Virus record (IMG/VR): IMGVR_UViG_2740892442_000015
DNA length: 11,507 nt
Source: a virus
Taxonomy: Duplodnaviria; Heunggongvirae; Uroviricota; Caudoviricetes
Reading direction: 5' to 3' (one strand)
A program made the translations under genes and the position numbers. Within the stretch, counting starts at the first letter, position 1; every line of letters begins with the position of its first letter. The notes below the pieces were generated by a model. That model was not told where the DNA came from, made no database searches, and saw only the letters and a list, made by a program, of their open reading frames with translations. Positions 1-10,573 of this stretch are shown in pieces.

Positions 1-468
1 TTTTGAATATGGAAATAAATCAATTATATTGCCAATTATTCCATCTTTTTGACAAAAGAGAATTATTATTAGATAAATGAAAGTAAACGTAATAAATGAG
101 ATGAAAACTTTCATAAATGCCATAAAGTTATATTTTAACGTGGGCATCTGTGTTTTTTTATGTTGTATTGACATCATCTGAAGAAACATCTCGGGTTTGG
201 ATAGTGTTGCAAATATTGTGAAACCAGCAATGAGAAAACCTAAGGTTGTCACTGCAAAGTTAAAACCAATCAAAGCCCAGTTTCTAATGTCAGATACTAA
301 ATGAGACATATCCTTCTCAATAAAAAAAGAGTTTGTTAATAAAAAAATAGATGCTGTGAGCAAAATGCAAATATGGAATGTACTAATAGTAATCCGTTTG
401 CAGAGCAAGTAAACATCCCAAAGGTTTTTCTCTTTGGTTATTTCTTTAGCATCTATTTTATTTATCAT
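1..468 (-). CDS. Partial ORF (first 156 codons; C-terminus lies beyond window start) encoding a predicted multi-pass membrane protein; last gene of the repressor-linked operon
   Basis: My own translation of the minus strand from ATG 468-466 to position 1 is open for 156 codons with no stop (MINKIDAKEITKEKNLWDVYLLCKRITISTFHICILLTASIFLLTNSFFIEKDMSHLVSDIRNWALIGFNFAVTTLGFLIAGFTIFATLSKPEMFLQMMSIQHKKTQMPTLKYNFMAFMKVFISFITFTFIYLIIILFCQKDGIIGNIIDLFPYSK...). The start overlaps the TGA stop of the upstream gene (ATGA at 465-468). It has several long hydrophobic stretches. It is absent from the supplied ORF track, probably because it has no stop inside the window. In this very AT-rich DNA an open frame of this length is unlikely by chance. 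Confidence 0.6.
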   Translation of the reverse strand, partial: MINKIDAKEITKEKNLWDVYLLCKRITISTFHICILLTASIFLLTNSFFIEKDMSHLVSDIRNWALIGFNFAVTTLGFLIAGFTIFATLSKPEMFLQMMSIQHKKTQMPTLKYNFMAFMKVFISFITFTFIYLIIILFCQKDGIIGNIIDLFPYSK

Positions 469-1493
469 CGACCAAACCTTTCATATATATTGCTAATAAT
501 TCTAATCGTCTTTTGTGAAAGAGAACGGGGTAGAGATATCTTACCTTCTTCTACAAGATTTTCATACCGCTCATAACTTTCATTTGCAGCTACTACCGTA
601 TCCTTTGATAATTCATTCATCTCACTTAACAAAACAAAGTCATCATTGCTACCTTTGATTATATCACCATTGTCATCATATCCTTTAATATTTATTCCTG
701 AATTAGCCAATCTGGTTGCTGATGTGAGTTGTTCTAAAACAGCACCATGATTCAAGCCTGAATCGGTGTTTGAAAAGCGAATAGATGTAGAAATACTTCC
801 CATTTCGTCTCCGGCACTTTCAAGTGACTCCCAAAATTCGTCGTTATCAATTTCTTCTTGATTTGTAGGGAGAAGTTTTACTGAGACATTTTGGATTTTA
901 TTAAAATTATCAATAAATTGCTCTAGGCTTTGTTTGTCAGTTAACGGCGTTATTCTTAGCTTCGGGCGTTTGATTTCGTTCCGTAAGCTTTTTTTAGTGA
1001 CTCGAGGTAAGTCAGGGTTTTCTTTGCGTTCTTCTTGTGCGGTTTCGTATAAATGAGATATGTATTTTTCATATTCTATGTTTAAGAAACACTGACTTGT
1101 TGACTGAAAGTTTTGAATTGTGGGAGCACCACTAACTTCCTTGCAAAGAATTAATCTGTGAGTGTTTAATATTAGAAGAAAGAAAGAGCTCGGGGCTGTT
1201 TCAAGCTCTTTATGATCTTCAACCAGATCAGCACCATCAAATACTTGTTCTCTGGTTAATAATGTATTCTTAATAATCCGACCTTTAATTCCGAGTACTG
1301 GGGGTGTTGCTTCTTCGTCAAGTATGACGCATTCAGTATCAATGAAAAAGAACTCTGATTTGTCAGATATTCTGCGGATGTTTGCCATCTCCAAAAAAGA
1401 GGGGAAAACAATTTCATCATAATAGTCTAGCAAAACATCATCACCAAAACGGAGAGTATAATTTCCAAATTCGAGTTTTTTTATAAAATCCAT
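465..1493 (-). CDS. Hypothetical 342-aa protein, acidic and Ser/Asn-rich, no motif I recognise (no P-loop, no tyrosine-recombinase signature); middle gene of the repressor-linked operon
   Basis: ORF from the track. A GAGG Shine-Dalgarno sits about 8 nt upstream of the ATG at 1493. It lies 15 nt downstream of the repressor gene on the same strand, and its stop overlaps the start of the next ORF. Spot counts give roughly 30 percent GC, far below the tail genes. Confidence 0.8.
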   Translation of the reverse strand: MDFIKKLEFGNYTLRFGDDVLLDYYDEIVFPSFLEMANIRRISDKSEFFFIDTECVILDEEATPPVLGIKGRIIKNTLLTREQVFDGADLVEDHKELETAPSSFFLLILNTHRLILCKEVSGAPTIQNFQSTSQCFLNIEYEKYISHLYETAQEERKENPDLPRVTKKSLRNEIKRPKLRITPLTDKQSLEQFIDNFNKIQNVSVKLLPTNQEEIDNDEFWESLESAGDEMGSISTSIRFSNTDSGLNHGAVLEQLTSATRLANSGINIKGYDDNGDIIKGSNDDFVLLSEMNELSKDTVVAANESYERYENLVEEGKISLPRSLSQKTIRIISNIYERFGR

Positions 1494-1508
1494 TACTATG
1501 CCTCAAGA

Positions 1509-2387
1509 TTAAATAGTACGGTACTGTGAGAAAATTTTGGCAACTAATTTTATATCTTCTTTTTCACAATCAAATGTTAAATCATCGTCTGTTACTCGAA
1601 GATTGCCTCCAGGTAATAGAAAAATTTGTTTTAACTTGAAATTATTTTGGTATTGAACAATCCATCTTCCGTCTTCAACATTAGCTTTATTCATGTGTGC
1701 AATATTTATGCAATGTTCGTCTTCAATTGCGAGTAAATCATTAAAATGAGGAAGCAGGGACTTATCTATCAATAAATGACCAGCATCGAAAATTTGATTG
1801 TCAATAAGTTTTACTTTAGGAATTTCTAAAGCTTCACTTTCTTCGCTTCCAAGTTTTTGCCCGCGCCCAGTTGCTAACCATAAAAGAGAAGTTCTTGTTT
1901 CCAACGAGCATCTTATGATCCAGTCAGCTGGGAATGTGTCTCGCAAGTATCTATTCGCCATTGTGCTTTTAGACACATTCAAATGGTCGGCAAGTTCTTG
2001 TCTTGTTTTAAAGCCATACGCTTCCATTAGCCTGTTTATCGCATTACGTCCACCTGAATCCAGATTTGGATGGTTCACAATTGGGTTCTCGTTGGTGGTG
2101 GCTTTGGGAACATATTGAACCAATGATGCTGGTTCCTCTAATTTAGCGGGAACTTCGGTATTCTTAGGAAATGGCACGCCTTTTCCGAATGAGAGCCACT
2201 CTATAGATGCTCCTGTTTCAATTGCACACTGAATTACCCAGTCAGCAGGAAATGCGTCACGCATCCAGCGCGTTCCCATAGTACTTGCAGATACATTGAA
2301 CTGTTCACATAGGGCTTGCCGCGTCTTGAATCCATACGCTTCAAGCATGCGCGTTATGACTGCCTGTCCTCCGTTTTTGAAATTCAT
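1509..2387 (-). CDS. Phage CI-type repressor-like protein with two tandem N-terminal HTH domains (186 CI-like family) and a C-terminal LexA/S24-like domain that appears degenerate
   Basis: Residues about 8-70 (VITRMLEAYGFKTRQALCEQFNVSASTMGTRWMRDAFPADWVIQCAIETGASIEWLSFGKG) and about 115-177 (AINRLMEAYGFKTRQELADHLNVSKSTMANRYLRDTFPADWIIRCSLETRTSLLWLATGRG) are about 60 percent identical to each other and match my memory of the phage CI repressor HTH domain. The C-terminal part (GRWIVQYQNNFKLKQIFLLPGGNLRV) resembles the LexA/CI S24 fold, but I see no G-x-S-M motif. The gene is divergent from an Apl/Cro-like gene. Confidence 0.8.
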   Translation of the reverse strand: MNFKNGGQAVITRMLEAYGFKTRQALCEQFNVSASTMGTRWMRDAFPADWVIQCAIETGASIEWLSFGKGVPFPKNTEVPAKLEEPASLVQYVPKATTNENPIVNHPNLDSGGRNAINRLMEAYGFKTRQELADHLNVSKSTMANRYLRDTFPADWIIRCSLETRTSLLWLATGRGQKLGSEESEALEIPKVKLIDNQIFDAGHLLIDKSLLPHFNDLLAIEDEHCINIAHMNKANVEDGRWIVQYQNNFKLKQIFLLPGGNLRVTDDDLTFDCEKEDIKLVAKIFSQYRTI

Positions 2388-2512
2388 CTAGTACGCCTTT
2401 GAGTAATATTGAGTTGATACTTCTCAAATGAAGAATTAATGTGTGCGAAAGTGAACTTGACGGTGTTAATCACCAGTTACCACACATCATGTTAATCGAG
2501 GAATCTTGCATC
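2388..2512. promoter_or_regulatory. Divergent intergenic switch region between the repressor gene and the Apl/Cox-like gene; likely carries both promoters and operators
   Basis: 125-nt gap between divergent start codons. TTGACG at 2457-2462 is a -35-like hexamer. The 8-mer TGTTAATC occurs twice (2464-2471 and 2490-2497). GGTGTTAATCACC at 2462-2474 has inverted 4-bp arms. A further TTAAT lies in the gaattaatgtg stretch just upstream. Confidence 0.45.
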
Positions 2513-2734
2513 ATGACTCCACATATTTCAATCACCTTAGCTGTTCCATCTGTTTCTATTGAGAAATACAGCGAACTGACTGGCTTATCTATCGACACCA
2601 TCAATGACATGCTGGCTGATGGACGTCTTATTCGCCATCGTCTCCGTAAGGATAAAAAGCGAGAAAAGGTGATGATCAATATCGCAGCAATGACTGTTGA
2701 TGCACTCGCTGAATGCAATTTGAGCATTAACTAG
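2513..2734 (+). CDS. Small HTH DNA-binding protein, Apl/Cox/Cro-like (73 aa)
   Basis: First gene transcribed away from the repressor. ATG at 2513 gives MTPHISITLAVPSVSIEKYSELTGLSIDTINDMLADGRL..., which contains an HTH-like segment. The track ORF starts at 2441 from an upstream codon, so the exact start is uncertain (another in-frame ATG lies at 2489). Confidence 0.55.
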   Translation: MTPHISITLAVPSVSIEKYSELTGLSIDTINDMLADGRLIRHRLRKDKKREKVMINIAAMTVDALAECNLSIN

Positions 2735-2748
2735 TTCCATTTTGGGTT

Positions 2749-3276
2749 ATGTCAGAGATGTCGAATATGTTTGATTACCAAGTTTCCAAACATCCACATT
2801 TTGATGAAGCCTGTCGTGCATTCGCATTGCGCCACAACCTGGTGCAACTGGCAGAACGTGCTGGCATGAATGTGCAGATTCTGCGGAACAAGCTGAACCC
2901 AGCTCAACCTCATTTATTAACCGCACCAGAAATCTGGCTGCTTACCGATCTGACTGAAGATTCAACGCTGGTAGATGGTTTTCTGGCACAGATTCATTGT
3001 CTGCCATGTGTACCGATTAATGAGGTGGCAAAAGAGAAACTGCCACATTACGTCATGAGTGCAACCGCAGAGATCGGGCGTGTTGCTGCAGGTGCGGTAT
3101 CTGGCGATGTAAAAACCAGTGCCGGTCGTCGTGATGCCATCAGCAGCATTAATTCTGTAACACGACTGATGGCGCTGGCGGCTGTTTCATTGCAGGCCCG
3201 TTTACAGGCTAACCCTGCGATGGCGAGTGCAGTTGATACTGTGACTGGCCTCGGTGCTTCATTCGGTTTGCTGTGA
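2749..3276 (+). CDS. Phage regulatory protein CII-like (phage 186 CII / CP76 family)
   Basis: 175-aa ORF. Segments such as [23 protein letters not shown] and [28 protein letters not shown] match my memory of the 186 CII family. It sits directly after the Apl-like gene, as in phage 186. An alternative start at ATG 2767 (MFDYQ...) is possible. Confidence 0.75.
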
Positions 3277-3283
3277 GGTGCTT

Positions 3284-3580
3284 ATGCTGACGAAAGAACC
3301 ATCATTTGCATCGCTGCTGGTAAAACAAAGCCCGGCAATGCACTACGGTCACGGCTGGATCATGGGAGAGGATGGTAAACGCTGGCATCCATGTCATTCA
3401 CAAGATGAATTGCTGTCTGAATTGACCACGAGAAAATGGAGAAAGTCCAAATGTATGCGGCAGAAAGTGAAGTGGTTTATCAGTTTCGTTACAGAGGGGA
3501 GAGTTATTCAGTACCTGAAGATGATTTGCTCTGTTGCTATCCGTCGTTGTCGGGCGATGGTAGCTACTTTTTCACGCTAA
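3284..3580 (+). CDS. Hypothetical small protein (98 aa from ATG 3284); coding status uncertain
   Basis: ATG at 3284 is preceded by GAGGTG and lies 8 nt after the CII-like stop. The C-terminal half overlaps the next ORF in another frame and has odd composition (rich in W, C, R, K). Confidence 0.3.
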   Translation: MLTKEPSFASLLVKQSPAMHYGHGWIMGEDGKRWHPCHSQDELLSELTTRKWRKSKCMRQKVKWFISFVTEGRVIQYLKMICSVAIRRCRAMVATFSR

Positions 3581-3675
3581 AGGATGGAACCTTTATACGT
3601 GGTGAAAAAGTACAAGAAGTGATGCGTATAAAGACATCACCTCTTGAACGTTATCGGCGAAGTATTTATCGGTAA
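3436..3675 (+). CDS. Hypothetical small protein (79 aa, or 74 aa from ATG 3451)
   Basis: ORF from the track. GGAG at 3437-3440 precedes the ATG at 3451. Amino-acid composition is balanced. It occupies the position of the small fil/dhr-type genes after cII in 186-like phages, but I do not recognise the sequence. Confidence 0.45.
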   Translation: MEKVQMYAAESEVVYQFRYRGESYSVPEDDLLCCYPSLSGDGSYFFTLKDGTFIRGEKVQEVMRIKTSPLERYRRSIYR

Positions 3676-3914
3676 CGATCTATCAGTGTCTGTATCAGAT
3701 GAGTGAATTCTTGTTGTTTAACCGAACCTAAAGGAAGTTTGTTTAATTCTTCGCGGAGGAGCTCAAAAAATGCAGATTGATTTGCTGAGTCAGTTCGAAA
3801 TAAGGAGTGGATCAGACCTGAAACAAGAATTCGTTGAACAGCAACCTCATCGCGAAGACTGGAGATCTCGTTTTCAAGTTGCTCTAAACGCTCTCTTTCA
3901 ACCGGGTTCAACAT
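3666..3914 (-). CDS. Hypothetical 82-aa protein with a coiled-coil-like N-terminus
   Basis: ORF from the track. On the minus strand an AGGA Shine-Dalgarno lies about 7 nt upstream of the ATG at 3914. It is divergent from the 113-aa ORF and its 3' end overlaps the plus-strand ORF ending at 3675 by 10 nt. Confidence 0.5.
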   Translation of the reverse strand: MLNPVERERLEQLENEISSLRDEVAVQRILVSGLIHSLFRTDSANQSAFFELLREELNKLPLGSVKQQEFTHLIQTLIDRYR

Positions 3915-3995
3915 TGATGATTCCTTCTAGCTATCAATATGTTGGTAATGGATCATATCAAAAATTTTTTAGTAGATGTGTTGTGGGATGCATAA

Positions 3996-4337
3996 ATGGC
4001 TATTGAAGGCGCTGCGGCGACTGTTCCATTAAGTCCCGGTGAACGCCTGAATGGACTTAATCACATAGCGGAATTAAGGGCGAAAGTATTTGGCCTGAAT
4101 ATTGAGTCAGAGCTTGAGCGGTTTATTAAAGATATGCGTGATCCACGGGATATCAATAATGAACAAAATAAACGGGCACTGGCTGCCATATTCTTTATGG
4201 CAAAAATTCCAGCTGAACGTCATAGCATCAGCATTAATGAGCTGACCACTGACGAAAAGCGGGAGCTGATTAAAGCAATGAATCATTTTCGTGCAGTGGT
4301 GAGCTTATTTCCCAGACGGCTAACCATGCCGAATTAA
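3996..4337 (+). CDS. Hypothetical 113-aa phage protein; lies just upstream of the tape measure region but could not be confirmed as a tail assembly chaperone
   Basis: ORF from the track with a weak Shine-Dalgarno (GGGA). I found no open -1 or +1 frame extending it toward the tape measure start, so a canonical chaperone frameshift arrangement is not supported. Confidence 0.55.
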   Translation: MAIEGAAATVPLSPGERLNGLNHIAELRAKVFGLNIESELERFIKDMRDPRDINNEQNKRALAAIFFMAKIPAERHSISINELTTDEKRELIKAMNHFRAVVSLFPRRLTMPN

Positions 4338-4404
4338 CCAACTAATGAAATTAATGGCGTAAACCCGCCGGGCATCCCTTTATCTAAATTCAGGAGAATT
4401 GATT

Positions 4405-4638
4405 ATGCGTAATATTGAAATCCTCACGACTAAAACCGGACCGGATGACGCAGGGCTTAATATTTTACTGACAGAGGCTCGTCTGGAAGAACGTCGGGCA
4501 AGGGCTGAAGCAATGGCAGCTCGCCTTGATAGCCTGGCGTGTCATATCACATCCCGCCAGCTAAACCACGTCAAAGCGGCAGAACTGCTGCGTGTAACTG
4601 CTGAAGCAATCCAGAACGAAGCGCAGGAGATCCACTAA
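4405..4638 (+). CDS. 77-aa ORF with a strong ribosome-binding site, in the same frame as the tape measure ORF and separated from it by one TAA; possibly the N-terminal part of a disrupted tape measure gene
   Basis: AGGAG at 4393-4397 lies 7 nt upstream of ATG 4405 (the track starts at TTG 4399). The stop TAA at 4636-4638 is followed two codons later by the tape measure ORF start in the same frame (4645-4405 = 240, a multiple of 3). The protein is helical and Ala/Arg/Glu-rich. Confidence 0.5.
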   Translation: MRNIEILTTKTGPDDAGLNILLTEARLEERRARAEAMAARLDSLACHITSRQLNHVKAAELLRVTAEAIQNEAQEIH

Positions 4639-4644
4639 TGGCTG

Positions 4645-7011
4645 ATGCAATGGATCTCGTACACCCGCAATATTGAACAGCTCGGTGATGCGCTGAACTA
4701 TCTGGATGATAACGCCATGTCGAAAGGGGCAGACATCATTGATGTGATGCAACGTCTGGGCGGTGTGGCTGACCGTCTGGATTATCGTAAAGCGGCGGCG
4801 CTGGGTTCCACCTTCCTGACACTGGGCGCTGCGCCAGAGGTTGCAGCCAGTGCAGCAAACGCGATGGTGCGTGAATTGTCCATTGCCACCATGCAAAGCA
4901 AGAGTTTCTTTGAAGGGATGAATCTGCTGAAACTCAATCCTGAAGTGATTGAAAAGCAGATGACGAAGGATGCGATGGGAACTATCCAGCGTGTGCTGGA
5001 GAAGGTGAACGCACTGCCGCAGGACAAGCGTCTGTCTGCCATGACCATGTTGTTTGGTAAAGAGTTTGGCGATGACGCGGCGAAACTGGCAAACAACCTG
5101 CCGGAACTACAGCGCCAGCTAAAACTGACAGCGGGCAATGATGCGCTCGGTTCCATGCAGAAAGAATCCGACATCAACAAGGACTCACTTTCTGCTCAGT
5201 GGTTGCTGGTTAAAACCGGAGCGCAGAATACCTTCAGCAGCCTGGGCGAAACGCTGCGCCAGCCGCTGATGGATATTCTGTACACGGTGAAAAGCGTTAC
5301 GGGAGCGTTGCGTCGCTGGGTGGAAGCTAACCCGGAACTGACGGGCACACTGATGAAAGTAGCCGCTATTGTGGCTGCGGTTACCGTAGGCCTCGGCACC
5401 TTGGCTGTGGCGCTGGCTGCAGTGCTGGGGCCGCTGGCAGTCATCCGTCTGGGATTCTCTGTGCTGGGCATCAGAACGTTACCTTCCGTTACGGCAGCAG
5501 TAACACGAACCAGCAGCGCGTTGTCCTGGCTGGCTGGCGCACCACTGGCACTGCTGCGACACGGGCTTGCTTCATCGGGTAACGCAGCGGGTTTACTTAC
5601 TGCGCCGTTGTCGTCTTTGCGCCGTACGGCATCACTGACGGGAAATGTCCTGAAAACTGTTGCAGGTGCGCCGGTTGCACTTTTGCGGTCTGGATTATCC
5701 GGTTTACGTGCGGTTGCTGTGATGTTTATGAATCCTCTGGCGGTACTGCGCGGTGGACTGACCGCTGCAGGTACGGTGCTGCGAGTACTGGCATCTGGTC
5801 CACTGGCGATGCTGCGCGTTGCCCTGTATGCCATATCTGGTCTGTTAGGTGCTCTGCTCAGTCCGATAGGTCTAGTGGTTACTGCACTGGCAGGCGTGGC
5901 GCTGGTTGTCTGGAAATACTGGCAACCCATCACCGCATTTCTCGGTGGCGTGGTGGAGGGATTCAAAGCGGCGGCAGGTCCCGTCAGTGCCGCATTCGAA
6001 CCACTTAAGCCTGTGTTCCAGTGGATTGGCGACAAAGTGCAGGCGCTGTGGGGCTGGTTTACTGACCTGCTGACGCCCGTTAAGTCGACCTCTGCCGAAC
6101 TGCAGAGTGCAGCGGCAATGGGGCGACGATTCGGGGAGGCCCTGGCGGAAGGGCTGAATATGGTCATGCATCCGCTGGACTCCCTGAAATCCGGCGTTTC
6201 CTGGTTGCTGGAGAAACTCGGCATTGTCAGTAAAGAGGCCGCAAAGGCAAAACTACCGGAAAGCGTGACGCGTCAGCAACCTGCGACGGTGAATGCAGAC
6301 GGCAAAGTGATGATGCCATCGGGTGGTTTTCCATCATGGGGATATGGCTTTGCGGGGATGTATGACAGCGGCGGGTATATCCCGCGCGGGCAGTTTGGCA
6401 TCGTCGGTGAAAACGGGCCGGAAATTGTTAACGGCCCGGCAAATGTGACCAGCCGGAGAAATACAGCTGCACTGGCTGCCGTTGTTGCCGGAATGATGGG
6501 CGTTGCTGCCGCGCCAGCAGAGCTTCCACCGTTGCACCCTTTGGCACTTCCCGCGAAAGGTGGAGAAGCAATTGTGAGTCGCGCAGCCACTGTGCCGCTC
6601 GTTCAACGGATTGAGGCACCGACGCAGATCATCATTCAGACGCAGCCAGGACAAAGTGCGCAGGATATTGCGCGGGAGGTGGCACGCCAGCTTGATGAAC
6701 GTGAACGCAGGCTGAAGCAAAAGCCAGGAGTAACTACAGCGATCAGGGGGGATACGACGCATGATGATGGTGCTGGGATTGTACGTGTTTATGCTGCGCA
6801 CCGTTCCGTATCAGGAACTGCAGTATCAACGCAGCTGGCGACATGCGGCAAACAGTCGGGTAAACCGACGTCCGTCCACGCAGTTTCTGGGACCGGAAAA
6901 CGACATGCTGACGCTTTCCGGTGTTCTTATGCCGGAGATAACAGGCGGCAGGCTGTCGTTGCTGGCACTGGAGCAGATGGCAGAACAGGGGAAAGCATGG
7001 CCCCTGATTGA
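4645..7011 (+). CDS. T: Phage tail tape measure protein (P2 gpT-like); probably disrupted at both ends, since the 3' 250 nt of this ORF overlap gpU
   Basis: The N-terminal region (GADIIDVMQRLGGVADRLDYRKAAALGSTFLTLGAAPEVAASAANAMVRELS) matches my memory of the tape measure core motif. A central hydrophobic region carries repeated xPLAxLRxGL motifs. It sits immediately upstream of gpU and gpD. The ATG at 4645 has no Shine-Dalgarno within normal spacing. Translation past about 6760 looks like out-of-frame junk and overlaps the recognisable gpU frame. Confidence 0.85.
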   Translation: MQWISYTRNIEQLGDALNYLDDNAMSKGADIIDVMQRLGGVADRLDYRKAAALGSTFLTLGAAPEVAASAANAMVRELSIATMQSKSFFEGMNLLKLNPEVIEKQMTKDAMGTIQRVLEKVNALPQDKRLSAMTMLFGKEFGDDAAKLANNLPELQRQLKLTAGNDALGSMQKESDINKDSLSAQWLLVKTGAQNTFSSLGETLRQPLMDILYTVKSVTGALRRWVEANPELTGTLMKVAAIVAAVTVGLGTLAVALAAVLGPLAVIRLGFSVLGIRTLPSVTAAVTRTSSALSWLAGAPLALLRHGLASSGNAAGLLTAPLSSLRRTASLTGNVLKTVAGAPVALLRSGLSGLRAVAVMFMNPLAVLRGGLTAAGTVLRVLASGPLAMLRVALYAISGLLGALLSPIGLVVTALAGVALVVWKYWQPITAFLGGVVEGFKAAAGPVSAAFEPLKPVFQWIGDKVQALWGWFTDLLTPVKSTSAELQSAAAMGRRFGEALAEGLNMVMHPLDSLKSGVSWLLEKLGIVSKEAAKAKLPESVTRQQPATVNADGKVMMPSGGFPSWGYGFAGMYDSGGYIPRGQFGIVGENGPEIVNGPANVTSRRNTAALAAVVAGMMGVAAAPAELPPLHPLALPAKGGEAIVSRAATVPLVQRIEAPTQIIIQTQPGQSAQDIAREVARQLDERERRLKQKPGVTTAIRGDTTHDDGAGIVRVYAAHRSVSGTAVSTQLATCGKQSGKPTSVHAVSGTGKRHADAFRCSYAGDNRRQAVVAGTGADGRTGESMAPD
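5520..5880 (+). repeat. Degenerate in-frame tandem repeats inside the tape measure gene
   Basis: Peptide motifs APLALLRHGL, APLSSLRRT, APVALLRSGL, NPLAVLRGGL and GPLAMLRVAL recur at intervals of about 20-25 residues. The corresponding DNA segments (ccactggcactgctgcg, ccgttgtcgtctttgcg, ccggttgcacttttgcg, cctctggcggtactgcg, ccactggcgatgctgcg) repeat at a period of about 65 nt. Confidence 0.5.
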
Positions 7012-7246
7012 AGGCAGCGGCACGATTTACGGCATGTATGTGATTGAGGGACTGAATCAGACTAAAACGGAGTTTTTCCGCGACGGTATGCCGCGCCGGA
7101 TTGAGTTCACCCTGTCGCTCAAACGGGTGGATGAATCCCTGTCCGATATGTTCGGTGATCTCAGTGCGCAACTGAATAATCTGCAGGACACGGCAACGTC
7201 TGCCTTAAGTGATATCAGTAAAACGGTGGGAGGGCTGCTGTCGTGA
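6761..7246 (+). CDS. U: Phage tail protein U (P2 gpU-like), 161 aa
   Basis: ORF from the track starting MMMVLGLYVFMLRTVPYQELQYQRSWRH..., which I recognise as P2 gpU-like. Its length is close to P2 gpU, and its stop overlaps the gpD start (GTGA at 7243-7246). Confidence 0.9.
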   Translation: MMMVLGLYVFMLRTVPYQELQYQRSWRHAANSRVNRRPSTQFLGPENDMLTLSGVLMPEITGGRLSLLALEQMAEQGKAWPLIEGSGTIYGMYVIEGLNQTKTEFFRDGMPRRIEFTLSLKRVDESLSDMFGDLSAQLNNLQDTATSALSDISKTVGGLLS

Positions 7247-8343
7247 ATTTCAGCTCAGAACTGCTTAACAAAGGCAACAAAACTCCCGCATTCAGCATCA
7301 GTATTGAGGGCAGGGATATCACCACTGTGCTGGATAACCGCCTGATGAGTTTGACGCTGACGGATAACCGGGGCTTTGAAGCGGACCAGCTTGATCTGGA
7401 GCTGGATGACGCTGACGGAAAAATCGTGCTGCCGCGCCGTGGTGCGGTCATTACGCTGGCGCTGGGCTGGAAGGGGCAGCCGCTTTTCCCGAAAGGGGCA
7501 TTCACAGTGGACGAGATTGAACACACTGGCGCACCGGACCGCCTGACTATCCGGGCGCGAAGTGCTGATTTTCGGGAAACGCTGAATACCCGCCGTGAAA
7601 AATCGTGGCATAAGACCACCGTCGGGGAAGTGGTGAAGGAAATAGCCGCGCGGCACAAGCTGAAGATGGCACTGGGTAAAGACCTGTCGGATAAGCCCGT
7701 GGAGCATATAGACCAGACTAATGAGAGTGACGGCAGTTTTCTGATGCGGCTGGCGCGACAGTACGGTGCCATCGCGTCGGTGAAAAATGGCAATCTGTTA
7801 TTCATCAGGCAGGGGCAGGGCAAAAGCGCCACTGGTAAACCTCTGCCAGTGATCACTATCACACGCAAGGACGGCGACAGTCACCGATTTACCCTGGCAG
7901 ATCGCGGAGCCTACACGGGCGTAATTGCCAGCTGGTTGCATACCCGCGAACCTGCGAAGAAAGAAAGCACCACGGTGAAGCGTAAGCGCAGAACTAAGAA
8001 GCAGAAGAAAGAGCCGGAAGCGAAGCAGGGCGATTACCTGGTGGGTACGGATGAAAACGTGCTGGTACTTAATCGCACTTATGCCAACCGGAGCAACGCC
8101 GAACGAGCGGCGAAAATGCAGTGGGAACGCCTGCAACGCGGCGTTGCGTCATTCTCGCTACAACTGGCGGAAGGGCGGGCAGATCTCTACACGGAAATGC
8201 CAGTGAAAGTCAGTGGCTTTAAACAGCCGATAGATGATGCGGAATGGACTATTACCACCCTGACGCATACTGTCAGCCCGGATAACGGTTTTACGACCAG
8301 TCTGGAGCTTGAAGTGAAGATTGATGATTTCGAAATGGAATGA
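7243..8343 (+). CDS. D: Phage tail protein D (P2 gpD-like, late control D family), 366 aa
   Basis: ORF from the track with a GTG start overlapping the gpU stop. It holds the gpD position between U and ogr, as in P2, and the sequence matches my memory of the family. Confidence 0.9.
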   Translation: MNFSSELLNKGNKTPAFSISIEGRDITTVLDNRLMSLTLTDNRGFEADQLDLELDDADGKIVLPRRGAVITLALGWKGQPLFPKGAFTVDEIEHTGAPDRLTIRARSADFRETLNTRREKSWHKTTVGEVVKEIAARHKLKMALGKDLSDKPVEHIDQTNESDGSFLMRLARQYGAIASVKNGNLLFIRQGQGKSATGKPLPVITITRKDGDSHRFTLADRGAYTGVIASWLHTREPAKKESTTVKRKRRTKKQKKEPEAKQGDYLVGTDENVLVLNRTYANRSNAERAAKMQWERLQRGVASFSLQLAEGRADLYTEMPVKVSGFKQPIDDAEWTITTLTHTVSPDNGFTTSLELEVKIDDFEME

Positions 8344-8433: not shown

Positions 8434-8652
8434 ATGATGATTTGCCCACTGTGTGGAAGTGCCGCCCATACTCGCAGCAGTTTTCAGGTATCTTCATTGA
8501 CCAAAGAGCGTTACAACCAGTGCCAGAACATTAACTGCAGCCATACTTTTGTTACTCATGAAACTTTTGTTCGTTCGATTGCAACGCCAAAAGAGTCAAA
8601 TCCGGTTCAGCCGCATCCAATGAAATCAGGACAGGTGGCGCTCTCTCTTTGA
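8434..8652 (+). CDS. ogr: Ogr-type zinc-finger late transcription activator (P2 Ogr / 186 B family), 72 aa
   Basis: MMICPLCGSAAHTRSS...NQCQNINCSHTF carries the C-x2-C...C-x4-C zinc-finger pattern and resembles P2 Ogr in length and sequence. It is the last phage gene before host DNA, as in integrated P2. The track ORF starts upstream at 8401 from an alternative start codon. Confidence 0.85.
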   Translation: MMICPLCGSAAHTRSSFQVSSLTKERYNQCQNINCSHTFVTHETFVRSIATPKESNPVQPHPMKSGQVALSL

Positions 8653-8887: not shown

Positions 8888-10573
8888 TTATCCTAATCCT
8901 GGCCATACCATGACGATGATTGTCCCTGCCAGCGTCAGCAGGACGTTGGCGATTGCATAGGTGCCCGCATAGCCCAGCGCCGGGATGTTACTGCGAGCTG
9001 TATCACTGATGATCTCCATTGCCGGCGCGCAGGTACGTGCGCCCATCATTGCGCCGAACAACAGCGCGCGGTTCATTCGCAATACATAAGCACCGAACAA
9101 GAAACAGATAACCACGGGCACCAGACTGACAATCAATCCGGCAATCAACATCTGACCGCCAATCGCGCCCAGGCCGTTATTAATACCGCTACCGGCGCTC
9201 AGACCAACGCCTGCCATAAACACCATCAAGCCGAACTCTTTCACCATGCTTAATGCACCCTGCGGAATGTAACCGAAGGTCGGGTGGTTAGCACGCATAA
9301 AGCCCAGCATAATTCCGGCGAATAACAACCCGGCAGCGTTCCCCATGCCGAAACTGAATGTGCTGAACTGGAAGGTGATCATCCCGATCATCAGCCCAAT
9401 AACAAAGAAGGCGCAGAATGCCAGCAGGTCAGTGACCTGGCTGTGAATCGAGATAAAGCCGATGCGATCGGCGATGGTTTTTACGCGGCGGGCATCGCCG
9501 CTGACTTGTAAAACGTCACCTTTGTTAAGCACGACGTTGTCATCTATCGGCATCTCAATCTGGCTACGAATGACGCGGTTAAGGAAGCAACCGTGATCGG
9601 TCAACTTCAGTTGTGCGAGACGTTTACCTACAGCGTTATGGTTTTTAACGACCACTTCTTCAGTGACGATACGCATGTCGAGAAGGTCACGATCGAAAAC
9701 TTCTTTACCGTTACGGAAGCTGGGATCGAGTCGGGCATGGGCGTCGGGATAGCCTACCAACGCTATTTCATCGCCCATTTGTAGCACGGCATCACCGTCT
9801 GGATTTGCCAGAATCCCGTTACGTCGAATACGTTCAATGTAGCAGCCGGTTTGTCGATAAATACCCAGTTCACGCAGATTTTTGCCGTCGGTCCAGGCCA
9901 CCAGTTCCGGGCCGACGCGATAGGCGCGGATCACCGGTAAATAAACCTTACGGTTGGCATCAGTGTCCAGGCCACGTTCGCGGGCGATTTGCTGGGCGCT
10001 GGTCTGTAAGTCCTGATGCTGCAATTTCGGCAAGTAACGCGCACCAACAATCAAACTCACCAGACCGATTAAATAGGTTAAGGCATACCCGAGGCTCAGA
10101 TTATCCAGTGCCAGTGAGAGCTGCCTGCTTTCCATGCCGGAATGACGCAGTGTATCGCCAGCACCGACCAGAACCGGTGTCGACGTCATAGAGCCTGCTA
10201 ACATACCGGCCGTCAGGCCAATATCCCAGCCAAACAGCTTACCTAACCCTAAGGCGATCACCAGCGCACTGCCAACCATCACCAGTGCTAACATTAGGTA
10301 ATTTTTCCCATCGCGAAAAAAAATGGAAAAAAAGTTCGGTCCGGCTTCGACCCCGACGCAGAAAATAAACAGCATAAAGCCAAGATTAAGCGCATCGGTG
10401 TTAATGCTGAAATGTTGTTGGCCTAATAACAGCGATACGACTAAAACGCCAATGGAATTACCCAGTTGGATCGAACCAAGTCGTAACTTTCCGAGACATA
10501 GCCCAAGCGCGAGGACCACAAATAATAACAGAATGTAATTCCCATTTAACAATTCGGCGACGTTTATATTCAC
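8888..10573 (-). CDS. ybjL: Putative transport protein YbjL (AAE-family membrane transporter with internal RCK/TrkA-C-like domains), 561 aa
   Basis: ORF from the track. The length and sequence ([25 protein letters not shown]...) match my memory of E. coli YbjL. Hydrophobic N- and C-terminal blocks flank a soluble central region. It is adjacent to ybjM and grxA, as in the E. coli chromosome. Confidence 0.93.

Follow-up and report, generated by a model that had tools for sequence, protein, structure and literature searches.

The tape-measure reading frame that overruns gpU in a defective 186/P2-like prophage of Escherichia coli is a truncated remnant with a one-base frameshift

Introduction

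The DNA considered here (11,507 nt in length and henceforth referred to as the window) contains an open reading frame of 788 aa (4645..7011, + strand) that reads as a phage tape-measure gene and runs 251 nt into a second open reading frame of 161 aa (6761..7246, + strand), which encodes the tail protein gpU. The locus raises the question of why one tail gene should overrun the next by such a distance, which base change is responsible, and in what state the tape-measure gene was when that change appeared. An earlier note on this DNA proposed an indel in one of two homopolymer runs, either a real pseudogenising mutation or a sequencing error. Here, we compare the window with intact and defective relatives and conclude that it represents an E. 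coli chromosomal site, flanked by rcdA and ybjL, at which a 186/P2-like (Peduoviridae) prophage has become defective, and that the frameshift came second, as a lesion without consequence in a gene that was already dead.

Results

The tape-measure frame passes its native stop and overruns an intact gpU gene

The frame that opens at 6761 encodes a full-length GpU domain, and its product is a member of the GpU tail protein family that is 48% identical to P2 gpU over 157 aa and has zero differences from the copy in E. coli TUM10008, which is annotated there as WP_000980413.1. The earlier view that the long tape-measure frame overruns a genuine gpU gene therefore holds. The features of this boundary are as follows:

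6761..7246, + strand: gpU tail gene, intact (PF06995, E=2.8e-44, profile positions 1-120 of 120)
6761..6764, + strand: ATGA, in which the native tape-measure stop (TGA) overlaps the gpU start (ATG)
6718..7011, + strand: out-of-frame extension of the tape-measure frame, 97 codons plus stop, overlapping gpU from 6761

The shifted frame misses the stop within ATGA and stays open over 97 codons of an alternative frame of gpU, up to a TGA at 7009-7011; this extension takes the place of the 15 native C-terminal residues AKARSNYSDQGGYDA. A Pfam search of the overlapping tail returned no family match, in line with the earlier description of its translation as junk. In the adjacent frame the last upstream stop is at 6702-6704 and the frame is hence open from 6705; it encodes TQAEAKARSNYSDQGGYDA and ends on a TGA at 6762-6764, within the ATGA common to the gpU ATG. 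Both this neighbouring frame and the two runs singled out previously, an A4 run at 6719-6722 and a G6 run at 6746-6751, are present in the window as had been described, and the G6 run is probably part of the gpU ribosome-binding site. The coupled ATGA stop/start, which had been put forward as the expected arrangement, is indeed the native state: in annotated intact relatives the tape-measure and gpU coding sequences overlap by exactly 4 nt.

A deletion of ~25.7 kb has removed the first 325 codons of the tape-measure gene

Comparison with relatives revealed that the two halves of the window do not adjoin in intact prophages. From 1 to 4663 the window aligns with early-region DNA of this family of prophages (99.9% to strain ETEC4091), and the match to the tail region of intact prophages starts at 4662, with 99.93% identity to strain 20A24. 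A three-way alignment placed the breakpoint at 4662-4663. Of a TraR/DksA-family gene, the initial 26 nt are retained before the junction, and in 20A24 coordinates ~25.7 kb is absent between the two halves. The features around the junction are as follows:

4638..4676, + strand: TraR/DksA-family stub of 8 native codons, 4 foreign codons and TGA, encoding MADAMDLVHPQY
4645..4662, + strand: fortuitous ATG and six codons, out of frame with the TraR stub, opening the tape-measure frame by chance
4662..4663, + strand: point at which the ~25.7 kb deletion joined the two halves, at a CA microhomology of 2 nt; early DNA on the left, tape-measure codon 326 on the right
4663..6717, + strand: what is left of the 5'-truncated tape-measure gene, still in the native frame; its residues are those of positions 326-1010 in the 1,025-aa 20A24 protein, without a difference

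The junction is rare: a 76-nt probe spanning it was contiguous in only one of 5,426 complete E. coli genomes, that of TUM10008, and split in ~1,100 others. As seen in an intact relative, the deleted DNA holds the remaining early genes and the genes for the sheath, the tube and the E/E' chaperone. Replication genes are among those lost and, judging from Peduoviridae gene order, the capsid, lysis, baseplate and fibre genes were probably lost as well.

It follows that the window does not hold a full-length gene of ~1,025 codons behind E/E', tube and sheath genes; homology begins at codon 326 and the DNA upstream of it is early-region DNA. Consistently, the match to PF10145 (PhageMin_Tail), at residues 9-138 of the 788-aa frame, covers only profile positions 74-201 of 201, because the deletion junction cuts the domain. 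The ATG at 4645, which the earlier note had taken as a genuine gene start, is accidental and opens the truncated frame by chance, and the remnant is promoterless and N-terminally truncated. An AGGAG at 4625-4629 would act as the ribosome-binding site for the TraR ATG at 4638; the frame that opens there ends at 4674-4676, which makes it doubtful that the remnant is translated. With the first 325 codons already lost to the deletion, the earlier suggestion that a one-base change had pseudogenised the gene is moot. We regard this structural description, namely a truncated remnant at a deletion junction in a defective prophage, as virtually certain.

The remaining gene content and the chromosomal setting are those of a cryptic prophage

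The rcdA-int ... ogr-ybjL context is identical in TUM10008, 20A24 and ETEC4091, which places the window at an established prophage site, and the loss of replication and virion-assembly genes extends, relative to 20A24, from the TraR-like gene to codon 326 of the tape-measure gene T. The genes that remain, in addition to gpU, include the following:

465..1493, - strand: hypothetical prophage gene of 342 aa between the integrase gene and CI, intact here and carrying a nonsense SNP in TUM10008
1509..2387, - strand: phage 186-type CI repressor, 292 aa (PF07022 in two stretches and PF16452; annotated as CI in relatives)
2767..3276, + strand: CII-family regulator of the early operon (PF06892, E=3.6e-42, and the annotation of relatives)
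3996..4337, + strand: DUF5347 early gene (domain search and the annotation of a relative)
4405..4638, + strand: DUF2732 early gene, the last intact gene before the deletion (domain search and the annotation of relatives)
7243..8343, + strand: gpD tail gene of the late control D family, intact (PF05954)
8434..8652, + strand: ogr/Delta-like zinc-finger late activator, the last prophage gene before ybjL (coordinates mapped through the TUM10008 alignment)
8888..10573, - strand: host gene ybjL, the right flank of the prophage (annotation of relatives)

The early region contains two hypothetical genes, the 186-type CI, a small regulator, CII, Fil, the DUF5347 and DUF2732 genes and the start of the TraR/DksA gene. 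The two open reading frames between int and CI gave zero matches in Pfam and PADLOC scans. With CI intact, repression of the entire early operon is to be expected.

The closest known tape-measure genes are those of 186/P2-like Peduoviridae prophages of E. coli and Klebsiella, which share with the window the downstream order of U, D and ogr. From position 4662 the DNA is 99.9% identical to 20A24, whose tape-measure protein is WP_101191063.1, and 97.6% identical to Escherichia phage 500465-1 (genus Wadgaonvirus), where the counterpart is gp40; relative to both, the window is without the first 325 codons, the upstream E/E', tube and sheath genes and one G near the 3' end. Phage P2 (NC_001895) shares the T-U-D-ogr order and differs in several respects: its early region has C and Cox, whereas that of the window is 186-like (CI, CII, Fil), and its T and U genes are separated by 14 nt with an AAGGAGG ribosome-binding site, whereas the window and its relatives have the ATGA overlap. 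An alignment with P2 gpT (815 aa) had been suggested as a way of examining the C-terminus. A central block of 153 aa does align with the remnant, at 45% identity, but the C-termini are unrelated and hence uninformative for the lesion, and close relatives were therefore used instead.

The frameshift is the loss of one G from a GG dinucleotide

We aligned window positions 6640-6800 with two intact relatives, the 20A24 prophage and Escherichia phage 500465-1. This comparison with close homologues, which the earlier note had also called for, located a single lost base and confirmed the native ATGA end.

6716..6717, + strand: missing G; GG in all relatives, single G at 6717 in the window

The alignment contains a single gap: the window reads CTGAAG-CAAAAG where the relatives read CTGAAGGCAAAAG, so that one G of the GG at 6716/6717 is absent. 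The change is thus GG to G (CTGAAGGCAAAAG to CTGAAGCAAAAG) and lies 2 nt upstream of the A4 run. The lengths of the A4 and G6 runs are unchanged, both being as in the window in all three aligned sequences. As a result, the frame shifts at 6717, and the native C-terminus AKARSNYSDQGGYDA on the gpU-overlapping TGA is recovered only after the G has been re-inserted. When the G was restored at 6716/6717, 700 of 700 residues were identical to residues 326-1025 of the 1,025-aa 20A24 protein, and the product ended in RRLKAKARSNYSDQGGYDA with its stop on ATGA. A megablast search with positions 6300-7100 gave more than 1,000 matches among the 5,426 complete E. coli genomes, and the matches listed each span 802 bases against the 801 bases of the query. 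The earlier prediction that one extra base would restore the stop was correct in that the window has exactly one base fewer than every intact relative; the site is the GG dinucleotide and not the A4 or the G6 run.

The single-G allele is private to the window sequence

Of the 1,066 E. coli records detected with a 76-nt probe that had the site at its centre, none matched at 99% identity or above, so that all 1,066 carry the extra base and the single-G allele is in none of them; the same allele was found in 0 of 32 phage records. One scan each of the GTDB species representatives, IMG/VR and metagenome contigs gave zero exact 48-nt matches to it, and the GG allele, which served as a positive control, was found at 120 loci or more in IMG/VR. 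At the protein level, an exact look-up of the 788-aa frame in an index of 153 billion genes returned no record, and the RLKQKPGVTT junction was absent among the 60 listed matches to the frameshifted tail in a search of a 5.8-billion-sequence collection; what this search did return were deletion chimeras of unrelated origin and variants with other frameshifts. Many such chimeras also end in the alternative frame of gpU. Among database copies of the gene end, entry P0007 has several shifts, and entry P0006, with 25 member sequences, has the G6 run shortened to G5. The single-G allele is private to the window sequence.

The most informative relative is TUM10008 (NZ_CP135658.1), which shares with the window the deletion junction, the rcdA...ybjL site and the remnant gene set. 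Over the 11,507 nt just two positions separate these sequences: the site of the G at 6716/6717 and position 920, where there is a SNP. The SNP falls in codon 192 of the 342-aa gene, which is CAA (Gln) in the window and in ETEC4091; TUM10008 has TAA, which, as judged from these sequences, is TUM10008's own derived nonsense change. Each sequence having one private change on a common background in which the 25.7 kb deletion was already present, the two are sister lineages and not the same assembly. TUM10008 differs from the window in keeping the GG, and its remnant ends on ATGA; PGAP has annotated this copy (RS168_RS22110) as a tape-measure pseudogene, 'incomplete; missing N-terminus'. Loss of the G in the window would consequently postdate the death of the tape-measure gene, or else be an error.

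Genuine mutation or assembly error

Our preferred reading, to which we assign a probability of roughly 0.5, is that the missing G is a genuine, private and neutral mutation that arose after the big deletion. The window has 17 homopolymer runs of 6-8 nt, and every one of them is as long as in TUM10008, which argues against a generally indel-ridden assembly. On the other side, an allele seen once has the appearance of a sequencing error, and a branch of the window's own with 0 substitutions and 1 indel is slightly unusual for a real mutation.

The same structure would also result if the missing G were a base-calling or assembly error, the real DNA having GG and its remnant ending on ATGA. We consider that this has a little less than an even chance of being correct. 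It would account for an allele that is unique across all collections searched and that is the only indel relative to TUM10008 in 11.5 kb, and the other database entries of this gene end mentioned above (P0007 and P0006) show frameshifts of the type expected from assembly noise. However, the site is a 2-mer rather than a long homopolymer, and the agreement of 17 of 17 runs with TUM10008 weakens a model of homopolymer error, although an isolated error is still compatible with it; moreover, a dead gene is free to gather real frameshifts.

Other readings of the overlap

The proposal that a base was lost by slippage from the A4 or the G6 run, pseudogenising an otherwise intact tape-measure gene, appears highly improbable. 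It is true that a base added in silico at either run also restores the ATGA stop, and that in other database sequences (P0006, G6 to G5) an indel has indeed occurred at the G6 run. However, these repairs yield either ...RLKQKARSNY... or ...KQKPGVTTAIRGGYDA, neither of which occurs in any relative, whereas the GG repair gives the exact native sequence, and the gene, already without 325 codons, was not intact. Furthermore, relatives have not changed the length of either run: among the fetched loci carrying the GG allele, the A4 run is conserved in 123 of 123 and the G6 run in 122 of 123, the one exception being a G7 that arose by an A-to-G substitution with the length unchanged, and all 123 continue ...ATGATGATGG after the run. 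The lesion is thus not a length change in a mononucleotide run of several bases, and the homopolymer indel of the earlier note has to be replaced by a base lost from the GG dinucleotide. The counter-test set by that note asked for intact homologues that have the same run lengths and also read through: the run lengths do match (A4 and G6), but no homologue reads through.

Since the deletion placed the tail-end block (the T remnant, U, D and ogr) directly behind the CI-controlled early operon, the block could in principle be a domesticated, expressed module in which read-through of T tunes the output of gpU, gpD and Ogr. The intactness of the genes would speak for this, but the remnant is too young for gene intactness to be a sign of selection, and we consider such a module very unlikely.

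Tail gene clusters are known to contain programmed frameshifts, those of P2 E/E' and lambda G/GT being examples, and the extended frame is open for 97 codons; nevertheless, that the read-through is functional, as a programmed frameshift or as an evolved overlapping extension giving a longer tape-measure variant or control of gpU translation, has a negligible probability, because the arrangement is absent from all 1,066 E. coli records, all 32 phage records and all 123 fetched loci, the extension is without a family match and merely an alternative frame of gpU, and the N-terminal third and every tail-building partner gene are gone. With zero conservation among relatives, a programmed frameshift or functional overlap was rejected.

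Discussion

The tape-measure frame that overruns gpU shows that an anomaly of reading frame, when viewed by itself, can be secondary to a far larger lesion, in this window a 25.7 kb deletion whose junction lies 2 kb upstream and which was revealed only by comparing relatives. Illegitimate recombination at the 2-nt CA microhomology deleted ~25.7 kb, from the 9th codon of the TraR-like gene to tape-measure codon 325. Taking the missing G as a genuine mutation, the dead remnant would then have lost one G of the GG at 6716/6717, and with it the correct frame for its 15 final native codons. Such a one-base deletion, private to this sequence, selectively neutral and later than the big deletion, would be ordinary prophage decay. 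We infer this order of events from the comparison with TUM10008, and the neutrality of the second lesion and the absence of expression of the remnant are likewise what the structure leads us to expect. In a remnant without its own start, a third of the protein and all assembly partners, the frameshift would be without phenotypic consequence.

Grounded, or cryptic, prophages decay by deletion and point lesions (PMC6379469), and the window resembles those reviewed there in the retention of the integrase and repressor, the deletion of morphogenesis genes and the presence of a secondary small lesion. Compared with other grounded prophages it has nothing distinctive and is very young, its leftover genes being 99.9-100% identical to those of intact prophages. 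The picture is thus that of a standard grounded or cryptic prophage, as already known; nothing in it is novel, and it has no bearing on open biological questions. The practical outcome is a correction of annotation: the 788-aa open reading frame should not carry the name of a tape-measure protein, as it is a pseudogene that has been 5'-truncated by a prophage-internal deletion and has a 3' frameshift, and gpU should keep its ATG at 6761.

CI repressor and flanking genes

The following features lie around the CI gene and in the tape-measure remnant:

1509-2387 (-), CI repressor, 292 aa; PF07022 and PF16452 matches
1-1493 (-), two genes lying between CI and the integrase: one of 226 aa that the start of the window truncates (L003:7288-7968) and one of 342 aa
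5196-6224 (-), 342-codon open reading frame antisense to the middle of the remnant, a part rich in Ala, Leu and Gly

The CI helix-turn-helix domain (PF07022) was matched in two stretches of the repressor and the C-terminal domain (PF16452) was also matched, and the protein thus appears, from its domain matches, to have DNA-binding domains in tandem at its N-terminus. In this it would differ from the CI of phage 186, which is roughly 190 aa long. The position between integrase and CI often holds accessory cargo in temperate phages; Pfam and PADLOC scans of the 226-aa and 342-aa genes returned no match. The 342-aa gene is intact in the window but carries a nonsense SNP (window 920, CAA to TAA) in E. 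coli strain TUM10008. The antisense frame is annotated in no relative; it is almost certainly spurious, a frame left open in coding sequence that is repetitive and rich in G+C.

Gene order at the deletion

4638-4676, TraR/DksA stub left by the deletion, 12 codons

The stub is preceded by a good AGGAG ribosome-binding site (4625-4629), and the deletion brings the tail genes U and D, together with ogr, to a position immediately behind the early operon that CI controls, an arrangement that might conceivably have some effect.

Frameshifts and proposed deletions reaching gpU

6761-7011, alternative frame of gpU, the shared C-terminus of the chimeras

The G run at 6746-6751, suspected by the earlier note, is not the indel site in the window but is one in other assemblies: in P0006, an ENA protein cluster of 25 member sequences, the tape-measure C-terminus reads ...NYSDQG followed by DTTHDDGAGIVRVY, a G6-to-G5 frameshift at the matching run that yields the same read-through into gpU. 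The protein search with the frameshifted tail also returned chimeras (P0001-P0005, P0008, P0009 and P0013) whose C-terminus is gpU read out of frame, ...GADGRTGESMAPD*. Their N-terminal partners include CII (PF06892), a TraR-like N-terminus, lysozyme (PF00959), a PF04717 protein and others. Since many chimeras carry this one common C-terminus, the matches suggest that this prophage family has undergone many independent internal deletions with an endpoint within gpU.
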